Shown here piece after piece: positions 31,116 through 48,555 of a stretch of DNA of 64,000 nt. Where the stretch lies: the NCBI GenBank assembly GCA_023228425.1, contig JALOBE010000005.1, positions 30,986 to 94,985 on the forward strand, given 5' to 3'. A program made the translations under genes and the position numbers. Every line of letters begins with the position of its first letter. Within the stretch, counting starts at the first letter, position 1. Below the pieces are notes generated by a model. It did no database searches and was not told where the DNA came from. It worked only from the letters and a program-made list of their open reading frames with translations. The stretch is from Syntrophales bacterium (GTDB taxonomy: Bacteria; Desulfobacterota; Syntrophia; Syntrophales; UBA2210).

Positions 31116-31590
31116 AGGCCATGATCTCCTTGCGAAAGACGAGTTTGTTGTCTTTGTCGCGATAGAAGTCTTTTAAAACGGCCGCCAGAGAGTAGCCGTG
31201 CTTTCGGTACAGGGCCCTCGCGGCTTCGTAGGGGGCCGTGGACGATGTCTCGATATAGACCGTTCCCCCTCCCTGGTCGGTGATGGAAGCCTCCATGAAT
31301 GCCAGCAGTTTCGAGCCGATGCCGCGCCTTGCCGTGCCGGGATCAACGGCAATCCAGTAGAGATCGAAGGAGTGCGCCGTCATGGGAACCGGTCCGAAGC
31401 AGATATAGCCGAAAAGGGTCCTGTCCGTACCGTAAAAGCCAAAACCGCGGTACCCGCTCGCGGCTCCTTTTTGAAGAATTTCATCAACCAGTTCCATGGC
31501 CACACGGTGTTCTTCCCTGCTGAACACGCCCGTGGCCTGAAGAAGCAGGCTTACAGCGTTTCTGTCGGAAGGTGTAAGGGGTCGAATCAC
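31105..31590 (-). CDS. GNAT-family N-acetyltransferase
   Basis: Motif A RRGIGSKLLAFME. 161 aa. The GTG start overlaps the upstream stop (GTGA). Confidence 0.8.
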   Translation of the reverse strand: MIRPLTPSDRNAVSLLLQATGVFSREEHRVAMELVDEILQKGAASGYRGFGFYGTDRTLFGYICFGPVPMTAHSFDLYWIAVDPGTARRGIGSKLLAFMEASITDQGGGTVYIETSSTAPYEAARALYRKHGYSLAAVLKDFYRDKDNKLVFRKEIMACEK

Positions 31591-32591: not shown

Positions 32592-33586
32592 AGTGCCATG
32601 GAGGCCGGCGTGTCTTCCATACGGGTCAGCGCGGCGTCAAGTATCGCCCTGATGAGGGACCTGTAGGGCATTCCCGTTCGGGAAGCGAGAATGGACAGGT
32701 CCGAATTTACCGGGTGAAGCCCGGCGAGAGGGTTCAACTCGATGACATTCGGAATACCTTCTTCATCTTCCCGGATATCGACTCGTCCGGCGTCACGGCA
32801 ACCGAGGCCGCGCCATGCCGCGAGGGCCGTTTCCGCCGCTTTCAGGGCACCCCGATCCCGGACGAGACGATAGATCACCCGTTCTTTGTAGTGTTCCTTG
32901 TTCGCGAAGGAATATACTCCCTTTTCAGCGTTTCCCCGAAGCAGGACCTCAAGAACGCCGAGACACGCCGCCCTTTTGCCCGTTCCCAGGATTCCCACGG
33001 TAAACTCACGGCCCGGAAGATAGGTTTCAACCAGGGCCGGTTGCTTGAAATCGCCGATGATCCTGGCACAATGGGCGACAAGATCGGCACGGTTCGTTAC
33101 CCGCGAGGATTCCCGGATACCCTTGCTCGTGCCTTCAGCAACGGGTTTTACGAAGAGTGGCCAGGGGAGGGAGATATGCTCCATATCTTCCGTATCCTTC
33201 ACGACCGCAAAGTCCGGTGTAGGGATATGCAGGTCCCGCAGCACGTGCTTCGCCATTCCCTTGTGGAGCGAAAGGGCCAGCGTCAGAGGATCGGAGAAGG
33301 TGTAGGGAATGTCATAGGCCTCCAGCAGTGCAGGCACCTGAGATTCCCTTCCGAACCCCTTGAGTCCTTCGGCAATGTTGAAAACCAGGTCCCATCGGTC
33401 ACCGGTTGCAAGGCGGGCCGTCAGTGCCCGGACGTTACCGATGGCGATCGGCTCATGTCCCAGCTCGTGGAGCGCTCCCGCTATCGCGTCGATGGTTTCC
33501 TTCGAGTCAAACTCGGCGACGGCTTCCCGGCTGTAGCCGGTGCTGAGGTAGTCGTCGATACGGTCGTAGGTCATGCCGATTCTCAT
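32588..33586 (-). CDS. ATP-grasp ligase, D-alanine--D-alanine ligase-like (copy A)
   Basis: PLFVKPVAEGTSKGI, VETYLPGREFTVGI, DAGRVDIR...VIELNPLAG. The stop overlaps the next start (ATGA). Confidence 0.8.
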   Translation of the reverse strand: MRIGMTYDRIDDYLSTGYSREAVAEFDSKETIDAIAGALHELGHEPIAIGNVRALTARLATGDRWDLVFNIAEGLKGFGRESQVPALLEAYDIPYTFSDPLTLALSLHKGMAKHVLRDLHIPTPDFAVVKDTEDMEHISLPWPLFVKPVAEGTSKGIRESSRVTNRADLVAHCARIIGDFKQPALVETYLPGREFTVGILGTGKRAACLGVLEVLLRGNAEKGVYSFANKEHYKERVIYRLVRDRGALKAAETALAAWRGLGCRDAGRVDIREDEEGIPNVIELNPLAGLHPVNSDLSILASRTGMPYRSLIRAILDAALTRMEDTPASMAL

Positions 33587-33588
33587 GG

Positions 33589-34926
33589 CTAATGAACTCC
33601 TTCATCAATCAGCGCGTGGGAGAGCTCGGCATTGTCTCGGTAACGGTACATTTTCCCTTCGAAATTCTTCAGCAGAACCGTGTCTCCGTCATGTCCCATG
33701 ACACATTCGGGCATTACCGGAATCTTCCCCCCGCCCCCGGGGGTGTCGATAACGTAGAGAGGAACGGCAAAGCCTGTCGTATATCCCCGCAGGTCCTTCA
33801 TTATCGAGAGTCCCGTCGACAGGGATGTCCGGAAATGTCCTGAACCGACGATGGGGTCGCACTGAAAAAGATAGTAGGGCCGGACCCTCATGCGTAGCAG
33901 CCCGTGAAAAAGCTCCATGAGCGTGGAGGAGCGGTCGTTTATTCCGGAAAGCAACACCGTCTGGCTCTGGAGGGGAATGCCGGCGTCGGCAAGTTTTTCA
34001 CAGGCCCGGCGTACTTCCTCCGTCAACTCCTCGGGGTGAGTGAAGTGCAGGTTTACCCACAGAGGATGGTATCGCTTCAGCATGCGCGTCAGGGGCTCCG
34101 TGATCCGTTGAGGAAGCACTACGGGCGCCTTCGACCCGATGCGCAGTATTTCCACGTGGGGAATGCGGCGGAGCCGGGTCAGGAGCCACTCAAGCCGGTC
34201 ATCGGAGAGCGTCAGGGGGTCTCCCCCGGAAATGACCACGTCCCGGATCTGCCTGTTTGATTCAATGTATTCGATGCCCGCCCGCCACCGTTCAACAGTT
34301 CCCCCCCGTCCCGCTCCGGGACGCCCCACCATGCGGGAACGCGTACAATAGCGACAGTAGGTGGAGCAGAAATCGGAGACCAGGAAGAGGACCCTGTCGG
34401 GATAGCGGTGAACAAGGCCCGGTACGGGCGTGTGGGCGTCTTCGCTGAGGGGATCCTGCAGTTCACCCGGTGAATGGATCATCTCTGCGGTGACGGGAAC
34501 AACGGTTCGCCGAAGGGGGTGCGAGGGATCGTCGGGATCGAGAAGACTCGCGTAATAGGGGGTAATCAGAAACGGAAAGCCTCCCGTTCCGAGGGAAAGA
34601 GCCGCCCGTTCATCATGGCTGAGGTTCAGAATTTTTTCCAGATCAGGGCCTGTTTCAAAGGCATTCCGTATCTGCCAGCGCCAGTCGTTCCACTGGGCGT
34701 CGGTGATCTCCGAAAAGAAACGTCCCCGAAACGCGGCGGTTCGGGAGCCCATGGACTCCCTTGCAGCCATTGTGTTTCCGGGGACTGTTCCGCTGTGGCT
34801 TGCCGGGGCCGTTCCCGCCTCCTGTCGTAGGGGAGGCTCCACCTCTTCCATTTCCATACTTTCCTGCTGCATCGTCATCACTTCTCCATTCCATCTGTAA
34901 TGCCGGACAGGCACTGATCCTTTCAC
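33589..34926 (-). CDS. kamA: Lysine 2,3-aminomutase (radical SAM, KamA family)
   Basis: WNDWRWQIRN, the CSTYCRYCTRSR cluster motif, PYYLFQCD and VIDTPGGGGKIPV. Collinear with Clostridium LAM, as I recall its sequence. The N-terminal ~70 aa may not be translated. Confidence 0.85.
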   Translation of the reverse strand: MKGSVPVRHYRWNGEVMTMQQESMEMEEVEPPLRQEAGTAPASHSGTVPGNTMAARESMGSRTAAFRGRFFSEITDAQWNDWRWQIRNAFETGPDLEKILNLSHDERAALSLGTGGFPFLITPYYASLLDPDDPSHPLRRTVVPVTAEMIHSPGELQDPLSEDAHTPVPGLVHRYPDRVLFLVSDFCSTYCRYCTRSRMVGRPGAGRGGTVERWRAGIEYIESNRQIRDVVISGGDPLTLSDDRLEWLLTRLRRIPHVEILRIGSKAPVVLPQRITEPLTRMLKRYHPLWVNLHFTHPEELTEEVRRACEKLADAGIPLQSQTVLLSGINDRSSTLMELFHGLLRMRVRPYYLFQCDPIVGSGHFRTSLSTGLSIMKDLRGYTTGFAVPLYVIDTPGGGGKIPVMPECVMGHDGDTVLLKNFEGKMYRYRDNAELSHALIDEGVH

Positions 34927-34954
34927 AGATCAGGCTTCCGTTACCTGTAAATTA

Positions 34955-34969
34955 GCAATCCATATGCCA
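34955..34969 (-). promoter_or_regulatory. Sigma-54 (-24/-12) promoter of the kamA operon
   Basis: The minus strand reads TGGCATATGGATTGC (consensus TGGCAC-N5-TTGC) and ends about 29 nt upstream of the first possible start (GTG 34926). Confidence 0.75.
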
Positions 34970-35023
34970 CAGTAATAACGTCTTATTATTACTACGATTA
35001 TGTACTTGTCGCAGGTTGATTCA

Positions 35024-35158
35024 GGAACGCAAAGTTCCGCTTTTCCGTCCGGGGAATGGCGACGGCAGGTTTTATTGCGCTTAAGCTATTGAAATTATGG
35101 AGGATAATGAATAGGAACAGAAAGTTCCTGTTTTGTCATGACCGGAACCACGAGTTCC
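35024..35158. promoter_or_regulatory. Three GGAAC-N5-GTTCC palindromes, candidate enhancer (UAS) sites
   Basis: GGAACGCAAAGTTCC (35024-38), GGAACAGAAAGTTCC (35114-28), GGAACCACGAGTTCC (35144-58). The last two are 30 bp apart centre to centre. All lie 60-200 bp upstream of the sigma-54 promoter. Confidence 0.6.
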
Positions 35159-35205
35159 TGTCAGAGCGTCGACGGCTGGAACGGCGCTCAAAATGGTCGC
35201 CCGTC

Positions 35206-36645
35206 TCAAGGGTTTTTCCCCGAAGGCCGAGGGCCGGTACCGGGAGGTTTGAAATATTCCTTCCTGAAACCGTGTCGTTTCATCAGCTTCGAGATCTGAC
35301 GCGTGGTGATCCCGGCACGGCGGGCCGTTTCTTTGATGCTTCCGCCTTCTTCCGTCAGAAGATCTTGCAGATAGCGTTTCTCGACGGCTTCAACGGCCCT
35401 GCGCCTCGTGTCGGCAAGCGTCGTGAAGGTGTCAACCGTGAAGGTCGGCGACGGGCCGTCGGTATCGAATAGTTCTCCCGGAAAGCTCTCCGGCGTGAGA
35501 ACCGGTGATGTTTCGATGATGTGAGCACGTTCAATGAGATTCTGCAATTCACGAATGTTTCCCGGCCAGGAGTATTCCTGAAAGGCCGCGAGTACGTCAG
35601 GGTGCACATCATGAATGACCTTTGTGGAGAACTTGTTGAGCTTCTTCAGGAAAAAGGAAACGAGAAGAGGAATGTCCTCCCGCCGATCCCGCAGGGGAGG
35701 CATTTCTATAGGGAAGACGTTCAGGCGGTAATAAAGGTCTCTTCTGAATTGACCTTCATTGATGAGCTTCCGGAGGTCTATGTTCGTTGCCGCTATGACC
35801 CGGACATCGGCCTCAAGGGCTTCTTCCCCTCCCACACGGCTGAATATGCCGTCCTGCAACACCTGGAGCAGCCTGATCTGGGCGGCAAGGCTGATCGTTC
35901 CAATTTCGTCAAGAAAAACAGTTCCTCCATGGGCAATCTCGAATTTGCCCATCTGTCGCCGGACGGCCCCCGTGAAAGCTCCCCGCTCGTGACCGAACAG
36001 TTCACTTTCAAGAAGACTTTCGGGAATGGCGCCGCAGTGGACACTGATGAACTGCCCCTTTTTCCGGTTGCTGTGCCGATGAATCAGCTTGGCCAGAACG
36101 CCTTTCCCCGTGCCCGTTTCACCGGAGATCAAAACGGTGCTGTTCGTTACCGCCACGGATCGGACTTTGTCGAGAAGTTTCATCACGGCGGGACTCCTGG
36201 TCTGGATCAGCTCGAGGGCGTCTCCTTCCCAGAACTGGCTTTGCATGTAATCGAGGGTCGACTGGACGATTATTGACTCGTAGAGGCTTTCGGTGACGTA
36301 TTTCACCTCGTCGGTATTCAGGGGGTAGGTCAAATAGTTGCTTGCACCTTCCTTGACGACGAGCACTGCTTCCCGGATCATTGCCTGGGGAGCCATGACG
36401 ATTATTTCAATATCGGGATAGGCCACCCAGTAGAGCTGCATGGCTCCCTTGTAATTACCATCGGGACTGGACTTCCGCAACATGTCAAGATCTATGAACA
36501 CAAGATCGTGACGATGGCGCTGGAGAAGATGAAGCGCCGCAGCCTGGTCGGACGCATGGTCGATCCTGGTTTGCGGACGGGAACGGAAGGAGGCCGCAAT
36601 CTGTTGATAGGCATCCTGATCTGCCAGAACGAGAAATGATTTCAT
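35206..36645 (-). CDS. Sigma-54-dependent transcriptional activator with an atypical receiver domain (NtrC family)
   Basis: AAA+ core (GETGTGKGVLAKLIH, GAFTGA, DEIG), C-terminal Fis-type HTH, N-terminal CheY-like fold (DLVFIDLDM). Confidence 0.9.
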   Translation of the reverse strand: MKSFLVLADQDAYQQIAASFRSRPQTRIDHASDQAAALHLLQRHRHDLVFIDLDMLRKSSPDGNYKGAMQLYWVAYPDIEIIVMAPQAMIREAVLVVKEGASNYLTYPLNTDEVKYVTESLYESIIVQSTLDYMQSQFWEGDALELIQTRSPAVMKLLDKVRSVAVTNSTVLISGETGTGKGVLAKLIHRHSNRKKGQFISVHCGAIPESLLESELFGHERGAFTGAVRRQMGKFEIAHGGTVFLDEIGTISLAAQIRLLQVLQDGIFSRVGGEEALEADVRVIAATNIDLRKLINEGQFRRDLYYRLNVFPIEMPPLRDRREDIPLLVSFFLKKLNKFSTKVIHDVHPDVLAAFQEYSWPGNIRELQNLIERAHIIETSPVLTPESFPGELFDTDGPSPTFTVDTFTTLADTRRRAVEAVEKRYLQDLLTEEGGSIKETARRAGITTRQISKLMKRHGFRKEYFKPPGTGPRPSGKNP

Positions 36646-36826
36646 CCGATTCTCCGAAGCGATTGATAGTATGGCTTCTGGAGAGGCTTTTAGTACTCTT
36701 TTCGGAGGAAAACAAGAACTTTCATGGTCCTGAAACCGGGATGAATCAGGAGGCGCGGTGTTCAGGACCTTCCCGTGACCCCGGACCTTCCGGGGGGTTG
36801 AAGGGGTTGAGGGGAGGAGAGCAATC

Positions 36827-38410
36827 TCAACCCTTGCGTCCCGCCCCCGCTTTCTTATTTTCCGGCTTTGAAAGGTTCCGCACGCGTCTCCCGTAAGGGA
36901 TGCCCAATTTTTTCAGTCTGCTTCGAAGCGTGCTGGGGTTGATTTTGAGTAACGCGGCCGCGCCTTCGGGTCCATGAATAACACCGTTTGTCATCTGAAG
37001 AGCCCGGCGGATGTAGTCGCCGGTCATTTGCTCGAGCCCCTGCATGCCCTCCGGCGCTTTCCGGAAATGTTCCGAAGTGGTACCATCTCTCCTGCTTCTG
37101 TCCAGAAAACGGAATTGCAGTGGAGCCTCGCGGTTCAAAATCATTTCCCGCTCCACAACATTTTCCAGTTCCCGCACATTGCCGGGCCACTCATAATTCA
37201 TGAGGCGGTCGATAACACCCGGTGCAAGTTCCGGCTTTTTTGACAATTTCAATTGCTGAACCTTGATATCTATGAAATTGTTTACGAATGCCGGTATATC
37301 CACCTTTCTCTCCCGCAAGGGCGGAATGTGGATGGGAAACATGTTTATTCGGAACCACAGGTCTTCCCTGAATAGGCCCTTCCTCACCATCTCCTCGAGA
37401 TTGCGGTGGGTAGCCGCGATGACCCGGATGTTCACGGAGATCGATTTCGAGCCTCCGACACGCTCAATGGTTTTGTCTTCGAGAACACGCAGTAACCGTG
37501 TCTGCGCATGGGCGGGCAAGTCTCCGATCTCGTCCAGGAAAATCGTTCCCTGGTCCGCCCGCTCGAACCGTCCGTACTTTTGCTCGACGGCGCCGGTGAA
37601 GGCGCCCCTTTCGTAGCCGAACAGTTCGCTGTCGATGAGCGTATCAGGGATGGCACCGCTATTTACAGCGATGAAAGGACCTTTGCGTCGGGGGGACAAA
37701 TTATGAATCGCGCCGGCCATGACACCCTTTCCCACCCCCGTTTCTCCGAGAAGCAGCACGGGACTTTCCAGGGGTGCGATAACGCTGATCATGTCCATGA
37801 CATTCTTCAGGCCGAAATCGGCGCCGATAATCTCATCGGGACACAGGTTCAGCAGATCCTTCTGAAGATACAGATTTTCTTCCCTGAGCAGCTCTTTAAG
37901 CCGGAGTGTCTCCTCGTGTTCGAGAGTGTTGGAAAGAGCGACGGCAAAGGCCTCGTTCAAAGGAGCAAGCCAACGCATATGCTGTTGTGTGTACCGGTCC
38001 GGACCCTTTGCCACAAGGGCGAGGGTGCCGAGCCTCTTTTTTTCAATGATCAGGCGCATAAAAATGATTGACGCATCGGACAGGTCCAGGGATGTCGTGA
38101 GTTGGTTATTTATGGGATCGTCTTTGGACCTGTTGATGATCCTGATATGCGGCATGTCGGGATTATCCATGGCCGCCCTGACTTCCGGTGTCAGCGGGGT
38201 CACCGTGCTGAGACGTCTGCTCGTAGAAGCCGTTGCAAGGGCTATGGTGTGTATTACACCGAGATCCTGTTCGTACAGTAACAGTAACAGCCTGTCCAGG
38301 GGGAAGGAGGTCTGGACGAGGTAGTCGAAGGACCATCGCAAGACCGTTGTAATGTTCAGACTTCCGCAAATGCGCTTTACCATCTCTCGAAAAAACTCAT
38401 GCTCACCCAT
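36827..38410 (-). CDS. Sigma-54-dependent transcriptional activator with an N-terminal GAF-like sensor domain
   Basis: GETGVGKGVMAGAIH, ERGAFTGA, FLDEIGDL and a C-terminal HTH. The N-terminal ~190 aa is GAF-like. Confidence 0.9.
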   Translation of the reverse strand: MGEHEFFREMVKRICGSLNITTVLRWSFDYLVQTSFPLDRLLLLLYEQDLGVIHTIALATASTSRRLSTVTPLTPEVRAAMDNPDMPHIRIINRSKDDPINNQLTTSLDLSDASIIFMRLIIEKKRLGTLALVAKGPDRYTQQHMRWLAPLNEAFAVALSNTLEHEETLRLKELLREENLYLQKDLLNLCPDEIIGADFGLKNVMDMISVIAPLESPVLLLGETGVGKGVMAGAIHNLSPRRKGPFIAVNSGAIPDTLIDSELFGYERGAFTGAVEQKYGRFERADQGTIFLDEIGDLPAHAQTRLLRVLEDKTIERVGGSKSISVNIRVIAATHRNLEEMVRKGLFREDLWFRINMFPIHIPPLRERKVDIPAFVNNFIDIKVQQLKLSKKPELAPGVIDRLMNYEWPGNVRELENVVEREMILNREAPLQFRFLDRSRRDGTTSEHFRKAPEGMQGLEQMTGDYIRRALQMTNGVIHGPEGAAALLKINPSTLRSRLKKLGIPYGRRVRNLSKPENKKAGAGRKG

Positions 38411-38429
38411 AGTATCTGTTGCCTCGAAC

Positions 38430-38473
38430 TGCGATTTTTCGCAATGCTATACATTAAACTGCGATCTTTCGCA
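38430..38473. promoter_or_regulatory. Two TGCGA-N4-TCGCA palindromes, candidate enhancer sites
   Basis: AACTGCGATTTTTCGCAA (palindrome core 38430-43) and AACTGCGATCTTTCGCAA (core 38460-73), 30 bp apart, between the divergent activator gene and the 38602 operon. Confidence 0.6.
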
Positions 38474-38549
38474 AGAAAAAACGTCGTATGTCCCGGTCAG
38501 GAGGGCTTCAGGCCCTCGTAAATACTTGCTATTAATAACAACAATTAAT

Positions 38550-38565
38550 TGGCACACATTGTGTT
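38550..38565 (+). promoter_or_regulatory. Candidate sigma-54 promoter (good -24, weak -12)
   Basis: TGGCACACATTGTGTT. TGGCAC is perfect, but the -12 element reads GTGT instead of TTGC at the canonical spacing. Lies 37 nt upstream of ATG 38602, and an AT-rich stretch (possible IHF region) precedes it. Confidence 0.4.
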
Positions 38566-38601
38566 AGGTAAAAGGTAGCGACACAGGAGAGGGTAGCAGC
38601 T

Positions 38602-38877
38602 ATGCAGTGGATGGAGACCATCAGGTTACGGGTTGCCGGGGGTGATTGCCGGGAATTGGAAGAGACCCTCCAGCGGATTGCGGAAGACACGATGGATGGA
38701 AAGGTGGCGGAAATAAAGCTGTATCAACATGCTACGGTACGCAGTGACGGTATGATCGTTATCAAATGGGAGTCCGGCAATGTAGAACTTCAGGGAAGTG
38801 ACGCGGGACGGTGCATCACCCATCTCCTGAAATCTTCAGTCCTGGCTTCCCATGCCGTTTGGGTGGAAAAAGAATGA
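38602..38877 (+). CDS. Small cytoplasmic protein of unknown function (alpha+beta, ABM/Dabb-like guess)
   Basis: 91-aa ORF with SD GGAGAGGG. First gene after the sigma-54 promoter candidate. Confidence 0.5.
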   Translation: MQWMETIRLRVAGGDCRELEETLQRIAEDTMDGKVAEIKLYQHATVRSDGMIVIKWESGNVELQGSDAGRCITHLLKSSVLASHAVWVEKE

Positions 38878-39082
38878 ACCGTCCGTGGGAGGTGATCGCG
38901 GAATACGACGACAAACCCTGTGTGTGGGGTAGTCGACCCGAACCCCGGGGGCTCGCGACCCCTGTGATGCCTGCAGAGGCAGCGCGGGAGGGTAAGATAA
39001 ACAGTAACGATGAGGGATGAGGGGAGAAGAAAGGTCTCCGCCTCCTTCGTCACAGAGAGAATCAGAAGAGGAGTACAGAACA

Positions 39083-40162
39083 ATGAAACGAAGAGATTTT
39101 TTGAAAGGTTTTGCGGCTACAGGAGCCGGTGTCGCCCTTTCCGGCGGAATCGTCGGAATGTCGACGGCCCATGCCCAGAAAGGGCGGGGTAAAGCGGAGG
39201 ACTTCGGGGAAATCAAAAGCCTCAAGGTACATTGCATCTCCGAAACGAGCTGGTTCGATAACGCCACACTTGGCCGTGATATCAAGAATGCCGGTGGAAT
39301 TAACTCAAACCAGTACGATGTTTCTTATGACGAGGAAAACCTTGGCGGCTATGCTGCCCTCGTGGAAGTGGAGGCCCTTGACGGCACCAAAACGAAATAT
39401 CTTCTGGACTCCGGCTGGAGCCGGGACTGGATGGATTATGTCTTTGCTAAAGACGGAATCGATACAATGTTGAAAAACAAGGAAATCGATACCTTGATCA
39501 TTTCGCACGACCATATCGACCACTACTTCGGTCTCGAAAGCACCCTGAAACATCAACCGGATATCAAAATTTACTTTCCCGGAACGTCCATGAAGAAAAG
39601 CTTCGAGCTTCTCAAGGGAGCCGATTTTTCTTCAACACCGGGCTGCCCGAAGAATACAGTGCCTCATACGGGTGAGCTCATTGTGACCGAGGAAAACAAG
39701 CTGTACAAGTTGCAGGATGGAGTGGCGATTGTGTTTTTCGACTGTCCCGCGACGCTCCAGGTAAGAGGCGAGAACGTCATGTACTTCAAGATTAAAGACA
39801 AGGGCTACGTGACAGTGACCGGTTGCTGCCATCCGGGTATTCTCACGCTCTTCAACTATTCGCGGAGAAACTTCAAGGATGGCGACAAGAACTACGGATG
39901 TTACGGCGGGTTGCACATATCGCCCTTTGAAGACTGGGATCCCCGCATGGACGACCTGATTCAGGGTCTGAAAGCCATGAAGATGACAAAGATCGGCTGT
40001 AACCACTGTACCGGGTGGATTTGGGCTGAAAAGGCCGCCCGTGAAGGTCTTGCCATCGTCGAGGGGACCGACAAGAACCTGTCGTACAAGAAGGTGGGTA
40101 CCCTCGCTCGAGCGAAGACGTCCAATGTCTACTTGGGAAATGGTGATGACATTGTGTTTTAG
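39083..40162 (+). CDS. Tat-exported MBL-fold metallo-hydrolase (COG1237-like)
   Basis: Twin-arginine signal MKRRDFLKGFAATGAGVAL...AHA. HDHIDHYFG (HxHxDH), VTGCCHPGI and NHCTG motifs. ATG 39083 is preferred to the track start 39017. Confidence 0.8.
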   Translation: MKRRDFLKGFAATGAGVALSGGIVGMSTAHAQKGRGKAEDFGEIKSLKVHCISETSWFDNATLGRDIKNAGGINSNQYDVSYDEENLGGYAALVEVEALDGTKTKYLLDSGWSRDWMDYVFAKDGIDTMLKNKEIDTLIISHDHIDHYFGLESTLKHQPDIKIYFPGTSMKKSFELLKGADFSSTPGCPKNTVPHTGELIVTEENKLYKLQDGVAIVFFDCPATLQVRGENVMYFKIKDKGYVTVTGCCHPGILTLFNYSRRNFKDGDKNYGCYGGLHISPFEDWDPRMDDLIQGLKAMKMTKIGCNHCTGWIWAEKAAREGLAIVEGTDKNLSYKKVGTLARAKTSNVYLGNGDDIVF

Positions 40163-40299
40163 ACAGAATCAAGGCGGTGCTTGTTCGCTCTTGAACAGGC
40201 GGGTGGCGGATAGGCCGGTCCTGATGCGGCCGGTATCCGCCTTCCCGGCGGATCTCTTCGACAGATCCGGAGCCGGAAGATAGCTACTGGGGGTATGTC

Positions 40300-41547
40300 A
40301 TGAATAACGTAAAAGATAACAATAACTGGATTGAATCGCGTGTTCTCGCTCCGCGATGGTCCGTCGGCATGTCAGGCTTGGCCTGCCTGGTTTTCCAGAT
40401 TGTGGCGATCTTCGTCATCTGGTGGATCTTTTTCTCCAATGCGGGAATATTCAAGCTTTATACGCCATTACTTGGTTTTTCACTGGTGGTCTGGACGCTT
40501 CTTATAATTCTCTGGCAGGTGGAACTTTTTGACTTCTGGCCCTTCAGGCGCAGTTTCCTGGATAATGCCAACCCCATAGGGAAAGGACTGGCGCTTTCCC
40601 TGACGACAATTGTCGTATATCTTGTATTGGTTATGGGGGTTGTGTTTTTGCTGATAGGCAATCTGGGTGTGACATATTTCAACTGGAGCAGTCTGACCCA
40701 GTATGGAGAATTCGGTCAGGATCTGACATCCGCCAGGGAAACAGCTTCCTGGGCGATGCTCTCTCTCTCCGTTCCTTTTTTCCTCATCAGCACGTGGTTT
40801 ATGTTCGGTATCGGAAAAGATCTCTTTCCCGAATTAAAACAACCAAGGAGGGGTATCGCGATGTGGTGCATGATCGCCGTCATAAGCGTCATACTGTACG
40901 CGATTTTCTTTCATCCCCACATTGGTTCCATGTTTTATCCCCAGCAGATATACACCGCCGTTCCACCCTGGTGGCAGGGGATAGCGCACACAAGGAGCGC
41001 TGAATTCAGTCTCGGCATCCTGTTTCTGTCCGTGGTGGCGGTATTTCTCACGATCCACCTCTGGGACGGCCGGCCCTTTACTCTCGTGTCGCGACAGCCG
41101 TGGCGGTTTATCTTTCTTGCGGTGGGAAGTCTTGTGCTGGGTTATGTCATATTCCGGATACAGCTGTATATTTTCGACTACCTCTGGTACGAGGCCTACA
41201 TAGGCGGGCAGAACGAGGCCAATTTCGGCTGGCGATACAGCCATACGGTTACCATGGCCAACTTTGTTCTTGTCGTGGCCATTCTGCAGAATACGCTCTT
41301 CGGCCAGGCCTACGCGAGGCTTTCCGGGGTCGTTCGAGGAATACTCAAAACGGTGGTTGCCGTTGTCGTAGGGCTTCTGTTTGCCTGGGCATACTACAGT
41401 TGGGGTCCTCAACTCCTCGGGGTTTCGTCGGGAGTCTCCCACCCCTCGGAAAACGCCGCGGCATTCCTTATCATGATTATCAACCTGCTCTTGATACAGG
41501 ATTTTTTCATGGATCGCTGGCCCGGGTACAGGAAGATACAACAATAA
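40300..41547 (+). CDS. Polytopic inner-membrane protein (~10 TM), no family recognised
   Basis: 415 aa with hydrophobic helices throughout, rich in W/F/Y. The antisense ORF 40834..41736 is a shadow. Confidence 0.7.
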   Translation: MNNVKDNNNWIESRVLAPRWSVGMSGLACLVFQIVAIFVIWWIFFSNAGIFKLYTPLLGFSLVVWTLLIILWQVELFDFWPFRRSFLDNANPIGKGLALSLTTIVVYLVLVMGVVFLLIGNLGVTYFNWSSLTQYGEFGQDLTSARETASWAMLSLSVPFFLISTWFMFGIGKDLFPELKQPRRGIAMWCMIAVISVILYAIFFHPHIGSMFYPQQIYTAVPPWWQGIAHTRSAEFSLGILFLSVVAVFLTIHLWDGRPFTLVSRQPWRFIFLAVGSLVLGYVIFRIQLYIFDYLWYEAYIGGQNEANFGWRYSHTVTMANFVLVVAILQNTLFGQAYARLSGVVRGILKTVVAVVVGLLFAWAYYSWGPQLLGVSSGVSHPSENAAAFLIMIINLLLIQDFFMDRWPGYRKIQQ

Positions 41548-41622
41548 GACTTTTGCCGTTTCCGCGCCCCTCCCCGGGTGAAGGGCGCGGAAACGTTTTC
41601 TGAACGAGGTGGTGTGGTACCA

Positions 41623-42591
41623 ATGACTGTACGAGAACGATATGACCCTGTCGCGTCTGTGGAAACGTTGATCAACGAAGTGTTGCTCAACGCCTTCCGG
41701 AACGATGGGGTTCGGGAACACCTTGGCTTTAAGCATGTTTCACAGGTCGTATCCGATAACGGATTTCCGGGGTGGTACCTGTGGTTCAGAGACATGTCGG
41801 GTGCTTTTTCCCTTGAAATACCCGAGATGGACGAGATTCCCGCCGGTGATGACGACACAGGGATACCCGGTGTGACGGGAAAAAACAGGGAGGACGTACG
41901 GCTTGCCATACGGTATTTTCCGGACACCGAGGAAGATGTTTTCGACTCATTTTCCTGGTATGAGCAGATAGTCAGATGCGGCCCGGATTTTGACGACATG
42001 GGCGTACCCGTCTTTAAGGGCAGGCGTGCCGTGAAAGATGACTACTTCGTGGTGGGCCACATGTCTGTCTCAAGAAACGGTTCGGCAGGGGTCGTTGACT
42101 TCAGTTGTCAGGCTCCTGAAAGATGGCAGGTATATCGTTCGGACGGGCTTGAACTTGCGGATTCCAACGGAACGGTTGTCCAGGTGCTTTCGCCCGGGCA
42201 ACGGGACAGAAATGTTCCGGGATGGAATCTCAGCCGGTACTGTTTCGACAGAATCGTATCGGCATACAGTTTTCTTGTGTGCCGTCCGCCCTCGACGGTG
42301 GGCGCGTCCCTGGGGCCGTCGGTACGCTACATGATAGACAGTACCGACACGGTGAACGTCGAAAAAGGTCGGGAACTGAACTTCTTTTCACTCCTGGTTT
42401 CTTTCCGGCAGGGTGATCGGGTTCACGATGCCGAACGGCGCCTCATCCGTCAGGGCGGTATGATAGTAGGTCTGTGGGACGATGTGCGGACGGTTCCCCC
42501 TGACTGGAGCAATCCTTTGTGGCTGGATATTTCCGAACATTCATGCCGGCATGATGAGGGCTTGTTGTGTAATTGTTTTCGGGACCACTAG
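41623..42591 (+). CDS. Hypothetical cytoplasmic protein
   Basis: ORF 41578..42591. ATG 41623 has SD GAGGTGG upstream. No motif recognised. Confidence 0.55.
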   Translation: MTVRERYDPVASVETLINEVLLNAFRNDGVREHLGFKHVSQVVSDNGFPGWYLWFRDMSGAFSLEIPEMDEIPAGDDDTGIPGVTGKNREDVRLAIRYFPDTEEDVFDSFSWYEQIVRCGPDFDDMGVPVFKGRRAVKDDYFVVGHMSVSRNGSAGVVDFSCQAPERWQVYRSDGLELADSNGTVVQVLSPGQRDRNVPGWNLSRYCFDRIVSAYSFLVCRPPSTVGASLGPSVRYMIDSTDTVNVEKGRELNFFSLLVSFRQGDRVHDAERRLIRQGGMIVGLWDDVRTVPPDWSNPLWLDISEHSCRHDEGLLCNCFRDH

Positions 42592-42666
42592 GACCGTTTC
42601 GTGCTGTATTGTTCCCTTGCGGAAATAAAAGACATCGGAGGCGCTCGAGACTAAACAGGAGCTGAG

Positions 42667-42936
42667 ATGAAAAGGGTGGACCAATCAAGACGACGTTTTT
42701 TCAACGATTATTTTATCAAGAACACGATACGGGCCATTGTCGAATTTCATGAGACGTACAAAGAAACCCGCAATGATCTCGCCTATTTTGAATCCTTTGA
42801 GTCGGCCTATCCGCTCATTTCGGAGAGCTATTCCTTTCTGGAAGATGAGGCGAAGCGGCTGGATATCGATACCACCGGTATGTCGAAACTCGAAATTGTC
42901 AAAGAAATATATGATCGAAACAAAAAACGGTCCTGA
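42667..42936 (+). CDS. Small hypothetical protein
   Basis: 89-aa ORF with GGAG upstream. Last gene of the + strand run. Confidence 0.45.
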   Translation: MKRVDQSRRRFFNDYFIKNTIRAIVEFHETYKETRNDLAYFESFESAYPLISESYSFLEDEAKRLDIDTTGMSKLEIVKEIYDRNKKRS

Positions 42937-43143
42937 GACATCCACCGCACGGAGGTCCGGACCGTTTTCGAAACAGTGCCGATTGATGAGGGAAGACCCT
43001 GTCCGGCGGGTTGATCTTTGAGAACCGGGACGCAATGGTGAGCATCGATAGTGGATGAAGGTGCGAAGGTGCAGAGACGATAAAGAGTGTTTACCATTGA
43101 CCTCCGGGGCGGTTCTCGCTATATTCCCACTAATTCTGATTTC

Positions 43144-43290
43144 GACGGCTCCGTGAAAAATCACCGGAGGCATGATTTCCGGGACGAGAGTCGAATGCTT
43201 GATTACGCTCCCTCCTTCGTCACTTCGGCGTATCCCGAAGTACGCCTCATTATCGGCGCGTGAGGCATGGGGGCCATAACCGGTAACGGG
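43144..43290. repeat. MITE-like repeat, family 1
   Basis: GACGGCTCCGTGAAAAATCACCGGAGGCATGATTTCCGGG...GATTACGCTCCCTCCTTCGTCACTTCGGCGTATCCCGAAGTACGCCTCATT. The right end is degenerate. Confidence 0.65.
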
Positions 43291-43342
43291 TGTGTGATCT
43301 GTTGCACCGCAGTCACTGATTCACAAACAGGAGTCCGCTACG

Positions 43343-45502
43343 ATGGAATATTCGATCCCGAACAATCTTGATGCCATTTTTGCCCCGCAGTCGGTGGTGG
43401 TGGTCGGCGCTTCGACCACACCGGGGAAGGTGGGACATGACATCTTCGCCAATATCCTTCAGGGGGGCTTTACCGGAACCCTGTATCCGGTCAATCCCAC
43501 GGCCAAGTCCATTCTCAGCGTTCGAGCCTATCCAGCCATTCGGGAAATCCCCGATATGGTCGATCTTGCCATAATCGTCCTGTCTCCTCAGGGTACGCTG
43601 AAGGCGGTCGAAGAATCTGTGGAGCACGGCATCAAGGGCATCGTCATCGTATCCGCCGGTTTTCGCGAGGTGGGCGATGAGGGACGAAAGTTGGAGGACC
43701 GCATCGTGTCCATCTGTCGTGAAGCGGGAATCCGGCTTATCGGACCGAACTGCCTCGGAGTCATCAATCCCATCCCTGCCGTTCGCCTCAATGCCAGCTT
43801 TTCCTCTCACATGCCCGCCACGGGCAATATATCGTTTATATCCCAGAGTGGCGCCTTGTGTACCGCCGTTCTTGACTTTGCCGCCGACCGTGGGTTTGGT
43901 TTCTCTAAATTCGTTTCTATCGGCAACAAGGCCGATGTGGACGAACTGGATATTCTACGCTACCTTCATACCGATCCCGATACGGCGGTTATCATGCTCT
44001 ACGTGGAGGAACTGCGTAGAGGTACGGAGTTCATAGAAGTTGTTAAAGAGATCACCTCCGGAAGTCGTCCGACCCCGGTGCTTGTCGTCAAATCCGGCCG
44101 TACAGGGGCGGGGGCACAGGCCGCGAGTTCCCACACAGGGGCCCTGGCGGGTACTGAAACGGTTTACGAGGCGATCTTTAAGCAATCAGGGGTAATTCGC
44201 GCCGATACGGTGGACGAATTATTTGATTTCGCGAATGTTTTTTCCTACAAGCAAGAAAGTGCCCTGGGCAAGTTGCGGCGCAAGCTGCCGAACGGGAACC
44301 GTGTGGCCATTGTCACCAATGCCGGCGGGCCGGGAATCATTGCTACCGATGTGACCGTTTCGTCGGAGTTGGAACTTGCCGCATTTCAGGACGAAACCAT
44401 ACGGGAGCTGGCCAGGCACCTGCCCCGGACCGCGAATATCCACAATCCCGTGGACGTTATCGGAGATGCTACCCAGGACCGCTACGAAAGCGCCCTGCGG
44501 ACAGTCATCAACGATCCCGGGGTGGACGGAGCGCTGGTCATTCTAACCCCGCAGTCCATGACCAACGCTCTGGGAACGGCGGAAGCAGTGGTTCGTGTGG
44601 CACGACGGACCGGGAAGCCCATTCTCTGCTGTTTCATGGGAATCATCGATGTTTCCCCGGGAGTCAAGTTTCTTCAGGAACATGGCTATCCCGTATACAA
44701 GTTTCCTGAAAACACCGCAAAGGCATTCAGTGCCCTTTACAGATATGCCCACTGGCTCAATCGCCCCCAGTTACCGGAGCTCACCCTTGATCATGATCGG
44801 GAGAGGGCGCGCACAATAATCGAACGATGCGCCGCCCGGGGCCGAACCTATCTCGGAGAACTGGATGGCCTGGAGCTGCTTCAGTGCTATGGCTTTCAAA
44901 CCCTCCCGACACAATTGGCCGGAAATGAACAGGAAGCGGCGGACATTGCCGAAACCATAGGTTTCCCCGTGGTCATGAAGATCGTTTCCGACCAGATCAT
45001 ACACAAGTCAGACGCGGGCGGCGTTATGCTGAATCTCAACAGCAGGGAGGAAGCCGGGGATGCCTTCCGCGGGATTATAGCCAACGCCGGCAGATATGAT
45101 CCGGAAGCGCTGATTCAGGGCGTTCTGGTCCAGAAAATGGCTCCTGCCGGAGAAGAGGTAATCATAGGCATGAAGCGTAACGCCGTGGGTCCCCTGCTCA
45201 TGTTCGGTCTGGGAGGTGTTTTTGTTGAAGTTCTGGGGGATGTTGTTTTTCGGCTCGCGCCCATTGCCCGGAACGAGGCGCATCGCATGATCCGGGAGAT
45301 CCGGGGCTGGAAGTTGCTCCAGGGCTTCCGTGGCCGTCCCGTTGCAGATACCGATACCCTGGAACGGTTGATGATGTGTCTCTCCGACCTGGCGACGCAT
45401 CATCCTGAAATTGATGAGATGGATATCAATCCGCTGCTGCTGCACGCTCAGGGTCACGGGGCGACCGTGGCCGATTGTCGTATCATCTTGCGCTTCGACT
45501 GA
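43343..45502 (+). CDS. ADP-forming acetyl/acyl-CoA synthetase family protein (CoA-binding plus ATP-grasp)
   Basis: VVVVGASTTPGKVGH CoA-binding N terminus, succinyl-CoA-synthetase-like middle, ATP-grasp C terminus (FPVVMKIVSDQIIHKSDAGGV). Confidence 0.85.
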   Translation: MEYSIPNNLDAIFAPQSVVVVGASTTPGKVGHDIFANILQGGFTGTLYPVNPTAKSILSVRAYPAIREIPDMVDLAIIVLSPQGTLKAVEESVEHGIKGIVIVSAGFREVGDEGRKLEDRIVSICREAGIRLIGPNCLGVINPIPAVRLNASFSSHMPATGNISFISQSGALCTAVLDFAADRGFGFSKFVSIGNKADVDELDILRYLHTDPDTAVIMLYVEELRRGTEFIEVVKEITSGSRPTPVLVVKSGRTGAGAQAASSHTGALAGTETVYEAIFKQSGVIRADTVDELFDFANVFSYKQESALGKLRRKLPNGNRVAIVTNAGGPGIIATDVTVSSELELAAFQDETIRELARHLPRTANIHNPVDVIGDATQDRYESALRTVINDPGVDGALVILTPQSMTNALGTAEAVVRVARRTGKPILCCFMGIIDVSPGVKFLQEHGYPVYKFPENTAKAFSALYRYAHWLNRPQLPELTLDHDRERARTIIERCAARGRTYLGELDGLELLQCYGFQTLPTQLAGNEQEAADIAETIGFPVVMKIVSDQIIHKSDAGGVMLNLNSREEAGDAFRGIIANAGRYDPEALIQGVLVQKMAPAGEEVIIGMKRNAVGPLLMFGLGGVFVEVLGDVVFRLAPIARNEAHRMIREIRGWKLLQGFRGRPVADTDTLERLMMCLSDLATHHPEIDEMDINPLLLHAQGHGATVADCRIILRFD

Positions 45503-46674: not shown

Positions 46675-48555
46675 TCAGACCTTGTCTCTGAAGGTCATTT
46701 TCAATTCACTGACACCCGCGATAGTTCTTTTGTCAATATCGAACCCTCCTTTTTCAAAAACATGCAACATGGGAAGGTTGTCTGAAAAAACCTCCGCGGT
46801 GAACCCGATAAGTCCCTGGCGCTTGGCCAGGTAGGTCAGATACGAGAGCAACTCCGTGCCGATGCCCTTGTTTTGATAGTTATCTCCGACGGTAAAGGCG
46901 ACCTCCGCTGTGTGTGTATCAGGATCAATAAAAAATCGACCGACACCGACAATCACTTCTCTGCCCGGTTCTCCGAGAACGGCAAGTATTGCCGCTTCCC
47001 TGGAATAATCAATCACGACAAATTCCTGGAGCTGTTCATGAGGTATATTAGTCCGGACAGTCATGAATCTCCGGCTGAGGCTGTTTTCCGACAGGGAATA
47101 AATAAAGTCCTTGAGCAGGTCTTCGTCACTGATTTTTATTGGCCTGAAACGGACTTCAAGACCTGACTTCGTCGTCCTGCGCGTTTCAAGTTCTGCGGGA
47201 TAGATGCCCTTTTCTCCAGGAATGAATGCCTGGTCTCTGTAAATCAAGCCGGCTTTTTTGGCTTCGGAAACGAGCCACGGCCTGAACTTCGGATGGGCGA
47301 TGGCGATGAGGTCCATTGCCCGTTCCCGAATGCTTTTCCCGTGGAGGTAGGCTATTCCGTACTCAGTGACAACATAATGGACATCTCCCCGTATGAGGGT
47401 GGCGCTGGCTCCTTCTCCCAGAAACGGTACAATCCGTGACAGTGTTTCTTGCCTTGCCGTGGATTTGAGGGTCAGGATGGTTTTCCCTCTTTTTGACAGA
47501 GGAATTCCCCTCATGAAATCCGCCTGCCCCCCCACACCGCTGTGGGATGTCTTGCCGATGGATTCAGCCGTTGCCTGGCCGGTAAGATCAATCTCCAGCG
47601 CGCTGTTGATAGCCGCCATGTTGCTGTGTTGGGAGATGATGAGGGGATTGTTGGTGTAGTCGATAGGACGGAACTCAATGGACGGGTTATCATGAAGATA
47701 CCGATAGGTGTCACGCTTGCCCATACAGAATGTCGCAACGGTTTTGCCCCTGTCTATGCTTTTGCGCGAATTGTCGATAACATTGCGTTTCATAAGTTCC
47801 ACGATTCCATCACTGATAAGCTCCGTATGAACGCCCAGATGTTTTTTCTCTAAAAGATTGGCGAGGATGGCGTTGGGAATGCTTCCGTAGCCCACCTGGA
47901 TCGTATCACCGTCCTCAATGAGACGTGCTACGTTTCTCCCGATTCTCTGAGCGATCTCGCTGTCGGCCTGAGGCACATACTCGAGCAGTTCCTCGTCGTA
48001 GGCTACGGCGAAATCAATGTCATCGATGTGAATAAACGTGTCACCGTGTATTCGAGGCATATGGGAATTAATCTGTGCGATTACAACGGGCGCGTTCCTT
48101 ACGGCGGACATTACAATGTCCACGCTTATTCCGAGACTCATGAAGCCGTGTATATCCGGCGGGGACGTCTGTATAAGGGCGACATCAATCTTGACAAGTC
48201 CCTCGCTCATGAGTTGGGGGACCTGGAAGAGAAAAATGGGGGTATAGTCCGCCAGTCCCGTATTGACGGCAGTACGTGTACTCTCGCCGATAAAGAAGGA
48301 ATTGTGGCGGAAGTTTTGCTTGTATTTTTCCTGCGCGTAGGGGGCGACACCCAGCGTTCTTACGTGGATCACTTCCGCGTCGACAAAAGCCTTGGGCTTC
48401 GAGTCGACATAACTGATCAGGCTCTGGACAAGATACTGAGGCTCGGCACAGGCGGAGCCTATGAAAATGGTGTTACCTCTGTGAATATGGCTGAAAATTT
48501 TATCAATACTGTCAAATTTTTCAGGGCACGTATTACACCAATGGTCCAATGGCAT
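46675..48555 (-). CDS. Acetyl-CoA hydrolase/transferase family protein fused to a C-terminal GNAT domain
   Basis: N-terminal ~430 aa is CoA-transferase-like (GSIPNAILANL, GVGGQADF). The C terminus has GNAT motif A (QNKGIGTELLSYL). Confidence 0.8.
   Translation of the reverse strand: MPLDHWCNTCPEKFDSIDKIFSHIHRGNTIFIGSACAEPQYLVQSLISYVDSKPKAFVDAEVIHVRTLGVAPYAQEKYKQNFRHNSFFIGESTRTAVNTGLADYTPIFLFQVPQLMSEGLVKIDVALIQTSPPDIHGFMSLGISVDIVMSAVRNAPVVIAQINSHMPRIHGDTFIHIDDIDFAVAYDEELLEYVPQADSEIAQRIGRNVARLIEDGDTIQVGYGSIPNAILANLLEKKHLGVHTELISDGIVELMKRNVIDNSRKSIDRGKTVATFCMGKRDTYRYLHDNPSIEFRPIDYTNNPLIISQHSNMAAINSALEIDLTGQATAESIGKTSHSGVGGQADFMRGIPLSKRGKTILTLKSTARQETLSRIVPFLGEGASATLIRGDVHYVVTEYGIAYLHGKSIRERAMDLIAIAHPKFRPWLVSEAKKAGLIYRDQAFIPGEKGIYPAELETRRTTKSGLEVRFRPIKISDEDLLKDFIYSLSENSLSRRFMTVRTNIPHEQLQEFVVIDYSREAAILAVLGEPGREVIVGVGRFFIDPDTHTAEVAFTVGDNYQNKGIGTELLSYLTYLAKRQGLIGFTAEVFSDNLPMLHVFEKGGFDIDKRTIAGVSELKMTFRDKV

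Follow-up and report, generated by a model that had tools for sequence, protein, structure and literature searches.

A conserved four-gene module of strict anaerobes pairs a predicted exported MBL-fold hydrolase with an undescribed membrane protein

Introduction

Hydrolysis of a compound outside the cytoplasm can be connected with its passage across the membrane, as in the case of GlpQ and GlpT, where glycerophosphodiesterase hydrolysis is followed by uptake, and of LplT-Aas, which flips lysophospholipids and re-acylates them. Proteins with the metallo-beta-lactamase (MBL) fold are found in other systems of the bacterial cell. For example, NorR is a GAF-type sigma-54 activator encoded divergently from NorVW, an MBL-fold flavodiiron nitric oxide (NO) reductase, and SoxH of the sox cluster is a periplasmic MBL protein exported by twin-arginine translocation (Tat). 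As for the COG1237/DHPS-like subfamily of MBL proteins, no member other than MJ0301 of M. jannaschii is known to have an assigned reaction. In the present work we describe an operon and its control region in a 64,000-nucleotide stretch of contig JALOBE010000005.1 from a Syntrophales bacterium, an uncultured relative of sulfate reducers (hereafter the window, whose first letter is position 1). Specifically, the operon contains four genes, coding for an MBL-fold metallo-hydrolase, a 10-helix membrane protein and two cytoplasmic proteins named here P322 and P89, which are found together in a large number of anaerobic bacteria. A useful term of comparison for the control of this module is provided by the orp operons of Desulfovibrio vulgaris, which comprise six orp genes, and by OrpR, whose PAS domain binds a [4Fe-4S] cluster (C52, E54, C61 and C65) and turns the activator off as the redox potential rises (PMC8359166).

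A Module of Four Genes Maintained by Selection

The open reading frames (ORFs) that an initial annotation of this DNA had named are all present in the ORF list of the window, every one with the same coordinates. The features of the locus, with lengths in amino acids (aa) or nucleotides (nt), are the following.

36827-38410, minus strand: sigma-54 enhancer-binding protein of 527 aa; N-terminal domain weakly resembling GAF, AAA+ domain containing GAFTGA, weak Fis-type helix-turn-helix (HTH)
38430-38443, no strand assigned: candidate upstream activating site 1, palindrome TGCGATTTTTCGCA, part of an 18-nt direct repeat with 30-nt spacing
38460-38473, no strand assigned: candidate upstream activating site 2, palindrome TGCGATCTTTCGCA, second copy of the direct repeat
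38550-38565, plus strand: putative sigma-54-type promoter TGGCACacattGTGTt, whose -24 element is perfect and whose -12 element has TGT for TGC
38602-38877, plus strand: 91-aa protein, first gene after the promoter, outside the conserved module
38874-39020, plus strand: 48-aa ORF, a doubtful gene without homologue or family match
39083-40162, plus strand: MBL-fold metallo-hydrolase of 359 aa, predicted to be Tat-exported, MBL by Pfam and COG1237/DHPS-like by PDB profile
40300-41547, plus strand: 10-helix inner-membrane protein of 415 aa, of an undescribed family and fold (AlphaFold, Foldseek, Pfam/NCBIfam)
41623-42591, plus strand: P322, cytoplasmic protein of 322 aa, undescribed family (alignment, AlphaFold, Foldseek)
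42667-42936, plus strand: P89, cytoplasmic protein of 89 aa, undescribed family (alignment of about 50 homologues)
42998-43020, plus strand: possible terminator-like hairpin, about 60 nt 3' of the last gene, a weak candidate from a consensus scan

One genome per species was scanned for relatives of the membrane protein, with 185,579 species covered; 126 relatives were obtained, about 80 loci were fetched, and the proteins of the window were searched against all ORFs of these loci. The best 80 of the 126 relatives all belong to the Thermodesulfobacteriota, in particular to Desulfobacterales, Syntrophales including Smithella, Desulfomonilaceae and, in one case, Desulfuromonadales, and the hosts include the cultured Desulfosarcina widdelii PP31, which has two copies, and D. 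alkanivorans PL12. In essentially all loci whose flanks are long enough (about 80 loci), the genes for the MBL protein, the membrane protein, P322 and P89 are adjacent, and this is true of three different gene orders. Specifically, in clade 1, in which the membrane protein is 55-80% identical to that of the window, the order is MBL, membrane protein, P322, P89; in clade 2, in which this identity is about 30%, P89 precedes P322 instead of following it; in a third branch (L093) the membrane-protein gene comes first and is followed by MBL, P322 and P89. As adjacency is kept in so many loci and through three orders, selection holds the four-gene set together, beyond the shared ancestry of one arrangement. 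The neighbourhood proposed by the initial annotation is conserved in its core, and its operon of six genes has to be reduced to a module of four, with the 91-aa and 48-aa ORFs left outside.

A distant variant, L096 (4937-9145), keeps just the MBL protein, here with a Sec-type signal or anchor, and the membrane protein, while a 402-aa exported, membrane-anchored protein and a membrane protein of the DsbD_2 family replace P322 and P89. The persistence of the pair with other partners marks it as the deepest unit of the module, and the variant gives a hint of extracytoplasmic thiol chemistry. L096 also has genes for an alpha/beta hydrolase and a DUF169 protein 4 kb away, and the same two genes lie beside a membrane-protein relative in L088. 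Apart from the regulator and from the genes for a NifX-like protein and a cytochrome c, all considered below, no neighbouring gene is common to more than a few loci.

Within the operon of the window, the gaps between genes measure 75-137 nt; in L001 and L002 the membrane-protein gene is separated from the next gene by 2 nt or overlaps it by 4 nt. The 205-nt gap before the MBL gene was considered as a possible site of a riboswitch or leader RNA; this was rejected, as no Rfam match at E<=1 was obtained anywhere in 36500-43600.

The Hydrolase Appears Competent and Exported

The MBL protein matches Lactamase_B (PF00753) with 28.7 bits against a cut-off of 22.7, and its HxHxDH motif corresponds to H142-H144-D146-H147. 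These four residues, together with H250, H278 and H308, are invariant in 32 sequences, and the segments TGCCHPG, YGCYGGLH and CNHCTG are invariant within the Thermodesulfobacteriota set. A further characteristic is the presence of Cys residues beside the His ligands, with C248-C249 invariant and C273 and C306 invariant within the Thermodesulfobacteriota module; the L096 variant has lost the latter two. The N-terminal signal MKRRDFLKGFAATGAGVALSGG...AHA is recognized by TAT_signal (PF10518, 24.3 bits, cut-off 22.7) and by TIGR01409 (17.8 bits, cut-off 16.7), and RRxFLK is found in 50 of the 50 aligned homologues. The motif S/T-R-R-x-F-L-K, the hydrophobic stretch and the AxA site for cleavage together predict a Tat substrate, and the protein looks both catalytically competent and exported.

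When the profile of the MBL family is compared with the PDB, the only matches are 2p4z (1e-16), 7dck (1e-13) and TM1679, 3h3e (2e-3). This places the protein by its sequence in the COG1237/DHPS-like subfamily, which has no agreed function, so that membership gives no reaction. A relationship with ComEC-like or RNase Z-like MBL proteins was rejected, the NCBIfam matches spanning just the HxHxDH stretch with scores far under the cut-offs. A literature search on 7DCK, on COG1237 and on MBL proteins in these taxa returned nothing usable.

Two loci contain additional MBL sequences. In L030, a second COG1237-type MBL gene without signal peptide lies directly 3' of P89 (10565-11416, plus strand), and a further MBL fragment is present at the edge of L006 (2-496, plus strand). 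Cytoplasmic paralogues of the exported MBL protein may therefore work with the module in these loci.

Three Undescribed Protein Families

The AlphaFold model of the membrane protein consists of ten long helices (pLDDT 84.6, pTM 0.88), and a Foldseek search of the PDB with this model gave no match at E<=1e-3, the top TM-score being 0.27. The window copy has no Pfam or NCBIfam family, and no Pfam family is found consistently in 48 members. Accordingly, the initial description of a membrane protein with no recognizable family holds, and the protein falls outside the known transporter families. The JGI name "AAT family amino acid transporter" was rejected, in view of the absence of any profile match, of a LeuT-type 5+5 fold and of an internal repeat; the Foldseek PDB results include no APC match. 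The family is small, with 92 clusters at 90% identity and, in a profile search, 135 representatives among 1.84 billion proteins, and no plasmid-borne copies were found.

The distribution of positive charges (K+R counts of 13 versus 2) places both termini of the membrane protein in the cytoplasm, and three W-P motifs mark its cytoplasmic side. With this topology, about 35 of the 49 invariant residues are located on the periplasmic side, among which H205-P-H207, R146, E147, Q304, R312, H315, H381 and E384 belong to the periplasmic face.

P322 co-occurs with the membrane protein in at least 70 loci and evolves fast, with 25-66% identity in the aligned set; the conserved positions are a few Trp, Gly and Pro residues, C162 and the C-terminal C316-x-C318. 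Its AlphaFold model has a pLDDT of 85.5 and a pTM of 0.86, and finds no neighbour in the PDB with Foldseek (top TM-score 0.21). No Pfam or NCBIfam family includes it, and only one of 48 members has a weak isolated Pfam match.

P89 likewise has no Pfam or NCBIfam family match. About 50 homologues share the N-terminal motif M-x-D-x-S-(R/K)-R-x-F-F and the motif YFxSFESAYPL. In particular, S-(R/K)-R-x-F-F mimics the twin-arginine motif of the co-encoded MBL protein, in the homologues of L005-L084 as well. As no hydrophobic stretch follows this motif in P89, it does not represent a signal peptide; P89 could act as a decoy for the Tat or chaperone machinery, or interact with it as a partner.

Distant Relatives of the Membrane Protein Adjoin Ester Hydrolases

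Full-length matches to the membrane protein with E from 1e-33 to 1e-5 define a set of distant relatives, near which no MBL protein, P322 or P89 is found. On all contigs of sufficient length, they are immediately adjoined by an ester hydrolase. Specifically, a PcaD-like alpha/beta hydrolase is encoded in L088/89, together with Amidohydro_2, DUF169, acyl-CoA dehydrogenase and enoyl-CoA hydratase genes, in L090, with an AMP-dependent ligase, and in L094, with an acyl-CoA ligase, while a patatin-like phospholipase lies beside the relative in L091/92. The short contig of L087 has a 3HCDH fragment upstream. The best indication of function is that members of this membrane-protein family are found repeatedly beside hydrolases whose folds differ, which suggests that they deal with a compound of the ester type, probably hydrophobic, either at the membrane or across it.

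Transcriptional Control and Accessory Genes

The protein encoded divergently from the operon is classified by sequence as a sigma-54 enhancer-binding protein (bEBP), with 222 bits for Sigma54_activat (PF00158, cut-off 20.2), 66 bits for AAA_lid_14 in Pfam, and a Walker A motif GETGVGKG and a GAFTGA loop readable in the translation. The Pfam match to HTH_8 is weak (18.5 bits, below the cut-off of 22). The GAF label given to its N-terminal domain is only weakly supported, the Pfam match to GAF_2 reaching 20.1 bits with a cut-off of 28.6. In the PDB, the top match of residues 1-190 is the sensor-protein chain 3o5y, weak at E=0.16, and the NCBIfam alignments of FhlA, NifA and NorR reach the N-terminal region with scores far under their cut-offs. 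The domain shows no PAS match and contains a single Cys, without the C-x-[DE]-x6-C-x3-C feature of OrpR.

In the intergenic region, the top-scoring GG-N10-G site upstream of the operon is TGGCACacattGTGTt, with the ATG of the 91-aa gene 37 nt further downstream. After TGGCAC at 38550-38555 the sequence continues with acattGTGT, so that GG-N10-G and the TG of the -12 element are kept and T replaces C. The palindrome TGCGA-N4-TCGCA is found twice, at a spacing of 30 nt, around 80-120 nt upstream of this -24/-12 element. These two occurrences, both in this intergenic region, are the only ones in the 64 kb window, versus 0.1 expected. Promoter and paired palindromes would together make up the usual layout of enhancer-dependent transcription. 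The palindrome is absent from the related module loci, which fits their different regulators. According to the proposed mechanism, operon transcription would start at the sigma-54 promoter and need the divergently encoded enhancer-binding protein, which should bind both palindromes about 100 nt upstream.

The sigma-54 dependence put forward by the initial annotation extends to other genomes. With a strict site defined as TGGCA[CT]-N5-TTGC[ATC] within 700 nt upstream of the MBL gene, and the rest of the same loci as background, 17 of 67 loci have a strict promoter, versus 0.0025 per background window of equal length, that is an enrichment of about 100-fold. Moreover, a bEBP gene is adjacent to the module in at least 31 loci, and the N-terminal domains of these regulators form one homologous group across both clades. 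Nine of ten sampled have the PAS-AAA-HTH architecture, and C-x-[DE]-x6-C-x3-C is present in 25 of 31. As the usual regulator shares the Cys-triad spacing of OrpR, the module is probably tied, in most of its copies, to reducing conditions or redox state rather than to a substrate. The ligand-sensing GAF regulator suggested earlier does not represent the general control of the module and is peculiar to this genome and to L017 and L030, where the only orthologues with the same N-terminal domain are encoded (E about 1e-135).

The 91-aa gene probably belongs with this regulator. The protein has no homologue in the other module loci apart from a weak resemblance (E=1e-3, 27% identity over 51 aa, same register) to a 99-aa ORF of L030, which lies divergent from the orthologue of the window regulator and on which this assignment is based. 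As the module of the window is set behind this gene, which seems to go with the GAF-like regulator, it is probably under a ligand-sensing control unlike the usual one. The possibility that the 91-aa protein is a diverged NifX-like protein was rejected (hhalign probability 1.3%). The 48-aa ORF is called in one of two public annotations of the same contig and has no homologue in any fetched locus.

Two accessory genes recur in the related loci. A small exported CxxCH protein with a conserved Met, by motif a monohaem cytochrome c, is encoded directly upstream of the MBL gene in 26 clade-2 loci and one clade-1 locus, and a Nitro_FeMo-Co (NifX-like, PF02579) protein scores above the Pfam cut-off in 11 clade-1 and 19 clade-2 loci. 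A search with the family profiles detects neither gene in the window.

Possible Functions of the Module

The reading that we tentatively favour, while holding it somewhat short of an even chance, is that the operon encodes a self-contained envelope module of anaerobes for the hydrolase-coupled membrane transfer of an ester-type compound. Its core would be a pair, possibly joined in a physical complex, of a folded, metal-loaded, Tat-exported MBL protein and a dedicated 10-helix protein with a site at the periplasmic surface. The MBL protein would cleave there a bond of the ester type, be it an ester, lactone, thioester or phosphodiester, in a compound that lies outside the cytoplasm and is probably amphiphilic, the membrane protein would then pass the product, or present the substrate, across the membrane, and P322 and P89 would bind at the cytoplasmic side and trap or process the arriving compound. 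As the module contains no ATPase, transfer would be driven by a gradient or by trapping. The periplasmic invariant residues of the membrane protein sit where the MBL protein is, and this counts for the pairing of the two. The initial annotation had proposed an inducible module either for capture, hydrolysis and uptake or for envelope modification. Of this proposal, the association of a hydrolase with membrane transfer stands, with independent backing from the distant relatives beside alpha/beta hydrolases, patatin and acyl-CoA ligases, whereas no co-conserved catabolic enzymes accompany it and the accessory genes are left unexplained.

A number of observations weigh against the favoured reading. 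The closest relatives of the MBL protein are uncharacterized structural-genomics proteins, from which no reaction type can be transferred, and the alpha/beta hydrolases of L088 and L090 have no signal peptide and are cytoplasmic, unlike the exported MBL protein. In the membrane protein, conserved residues are at the periplasmic face with few polar ones in the middle of the membrane, and neither a known transporter fold nor an internal repeat (hhalign probability 1%) is present. Clustering of all neighbouring ORFs revealed no catabolic enzyme co-conserved with the module. As for its control, the -12 element of the window promoter is imperfect and the usual regulator resembles a redox sensor, not a substrate sensor. 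Finally, hydrolysis plus uptake does not explain the cytochrome c and the NifX-like protein.

These accessory genes have a natural place in a different explanation, which we regard as rather unlikely, namely a redox or complex-metallocofactor system in which the MBL protein has a Cys/His-rich redox-active centre and exchanges electrons with the periplasmic monohaem cytochrome c, the membrane protein anchors or wires it, NifX/ORP-like and orphan proteins mature it, and expression follows the redox state. The cytochrome c gene directly upstream of the MBL gene in 26 clade-2 loci and one clade-1 locus would be accounted for in this way, as would the NifX-like protein of about 30 loci, the OrpR ligand spacing in 25 of 31 adjacent regulators and the confinement of the module to strict anaerobes. 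Further points in its favour are the extra Cys residues flanking the His ligands of the MBL protein (C248-C249, C273 and C306, where 2p4z reads GCSH and GHCTG), Tat export, which is typical of cofactor-loaded proteins, and a DsbD_2-type membrane protein beside the pair in L096. However, in the same L096 C273 and C306 are lost, cytochrome c is nearly absent from clade 1, and the window has neither cytochrome c nor a NifX-like gene. In addition, no canonical redox-cofactor motif is found in the membrane protein or P322, the MBL protein keeps the hydrolase-type HxHxDH and not the HxExDH that flavodiiron proteins carry, and the distant relatives of the membrane protein pair with esterases, not with redox enzymes. 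A more ambitious form of this explanation sees a new trans-envelope metalloenzyme complex, that is a redox-active MBL protein on a membrane protein of new fold under an Fe-S-sensing sigma-54 switch, and would add a dedicated cytochrome c in many genomes, NifX/ORP-like carriers and chemistry outside the assigned enzyme families; we consider it unlikely. If true, the redox explanation would represent a new kind of system.

No external nutrient is needed if the module remodels envelope lipids, with the MBL protein attacking lipids in the outer leaflet of the inner membrane, as a phosphodiesterase or an esterase, the membrane protein flipping or presenting the lipid or its product, and the cytoplasmic proteins recycling it. 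Such a role agrees with the location of the conserved membrane-protein site at the periplasmic interface, with the self-contained nature of the module, to which no catabolic pathway is attached, and with the patatin-like phospholipase and long-chain-type acyl-CoA ligases beside the distant relatives; a redox-linked regulator fits envelope adaptation better than a nutrient response. We nonetheless find this explanation quite unlikely, given that no lipid-metabolism family is detectable in any core protein, that the PDB search revealed no likeness to known flippases or GT-C-type enzymes, that other distant relatives are in catabolic-looking clusters (Amidohydro_2, DUF169, acyl-CoA dehydrogenase, enoyl-CoA hydratase), and that cytochrome c and NifX-like accessories are again left unexplained. 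The direction of transfer might also be the opposite, with P322, P89 and, in the loci that have it, the NifX-like protein making or binding a compound in the cytoplasm, the membrane protein exporting it, and the MBL protein maturing or releasing it in the periplasm. The same four-gene co-conservation data apply to export, which would likewise place cytoplasmic and periplasmic partners on the two sides of one membrane protein, and NifX-like proteins (PF02579) are cofactor carriers; yet no biosynthetic enzyme family is recognizable, and esterases and CoA ligases beside the distant relatives suggest inward flow, which makes export improbable. Last, the gaps of 75-137 nt in the window and the imperfect -12 element could be taken to mean that the genes are mere neighbours with no common function and no sigma-54 control. 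The co-conservation data, with four genes together in about 80 loci and three orders, exclude a chance neighbourhood, the upstream regions show an enrichment of about 100-fold in strict sigma-54 promoters, and the window has no further copy of the paired palindromes, so that only a negligible likelihood is left to this explanation.

Whatever its function, just one of the four core proteins belongs to a described family, and two of the other three have confidently predicted folds lacking solved neighbours. The hosts are sulfate reducers and syntrophs, which drive anaerobic carbon and sulfur turnover, and the cultured Desulfosarcina widdelii PP31 and D. alkanivorans PL12 make experiments feasible. 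Once solved, the function of the module would define a new membrane-protein family and give a first physiological role to an exported COG1237 MBL member, and would probably reveal a substrate class or an envelope process specific to anoxic life. If confirmed, the link with an OrpR-like Fe-S PAS regulator would widen the known reach of that redox-sensing mechanism.

Other Genes of the Window

Downstream of the operon, an ADP-forming acyl-CoA synthetase is encoded at 43343-45502 (plus strand), for which the NCBIfam 4-hydroxybutyrate-CoA ligase gives 665 bits, below the cut-off of 1300, and the protein at 46675-48555 (minus strand) is publicly annotated with acetyl-CoA hydrolase/transferase and GNAT acetyltransferase domains. 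In other genomes, neither is conserved beside the module. Further on, 52097-55750 (minus strand) encodes a sensor histidine kinase of 1217 aa with multiple PAS domains and a GAF domain.

On the other side, a second sigma-54 activator is encoded directly beside the first (35206-36645, minus strand), with a receiver-domain match of 29.9 bits, under the cut-off of 30.2. A near-consensus sigma-54 site, TGGCATATGGATTGCT (34954-34969, minus strand), lies just upstream of a lysine-2,3-aminomutase-like radical SAM gene (33589-34926), which is followed by two D-Ala-D-Ala-ligase-like ATP-grasp genes. The whole region 31587-36645 (minus strand) probably forms a sigma-54 regulon of its own, directed to a product of the beta-amino-acid or peptide type.

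Between about 6000 and 21000 there is one long run of plus-strand genes, in which the G+C content is 0.45-0.49 versus 0.55-0.61 in the flanks. It comprises genes for a GCV_T-like protein, an 850-aa protein with two ketoacyl-synthase units, a MacB/FtsX-type ABC exporter, a 3-hydroxyacyl-CoA dehydrogenase, two FabG-like reductases and a LolA-like protein, and looks like a synthesis and export cluster for an unusual lipid or an aryl-polyene-type product.

Comparison with Known Systems

The nearest relatives of the hydrolase, the COG1237/DHPS-like proteins 2p4z, 7dck and 3h3e, share with it HxHxDH, TGC-x-H-x-G, GG-x-H and HCTG. The solved members are cytoplasmic and have PDB molecule names without a specific function, whereas the module protein is predicted to be Tat-exported, exceeds them in length by about 40-70 residues and has the membrane protein as its constant partner. 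Its extra Cys residues by the His ligands (CC, YGC, CNHC) correspond to GCSH, GGFH and GHCTG in 2p4z.

In its control, the module resembles the OrpR-orp system, as both are anaerobe-specific, sigma-54-driven and provided with a dedicated bEBP, whose PAS Cys spacing is shared in most module loci; the window regulator differs in having neither PAS domain nor Cys triad. The orp operons encode NifX-like proteins, as many module loci do, and the orp genes are not known to include an MBL protein, a 10-helix membrane protein, P322 or P89. In the window, the arrangement of a GAF-like bEBP divergent from an MBL operon recalls NorR-NorVW, and the NCBIfam NorR model aligns to residues 114-504 of the regulator. 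Its score, however, is 306 bits with a cut-off of 476, and the MBL protein of the module has HxHxDH, is without flavodoxin or rubredoxin domain and is exported. SoxH offers a further parallel, being a Tat-exported MBL protein in a periplasmic system with c-type cytochromes, as in the clade-2 loci, but no other sox gene is near the module, and the taxa are sulfate reducers and syntrophs, not sulfur oxidizers.

GlpQ-GlpT and LplT-Aas differ from the module in their components, as the latter has no sequence or fold kinship to the major facilitator superfamily (MFS) or to known transporters and includes two orphan cytoplasmic partners. They share with it an extracytoplasmic hydrolase by a membrane protein and cytoplasmic trapping, for which the distant relatives have an acyl-CoA ligase. 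According to the reading favoured here, the module would thus follow a known logic, extracytoplasmic hydrolysis and membrane transfer, built from three undescribed families.

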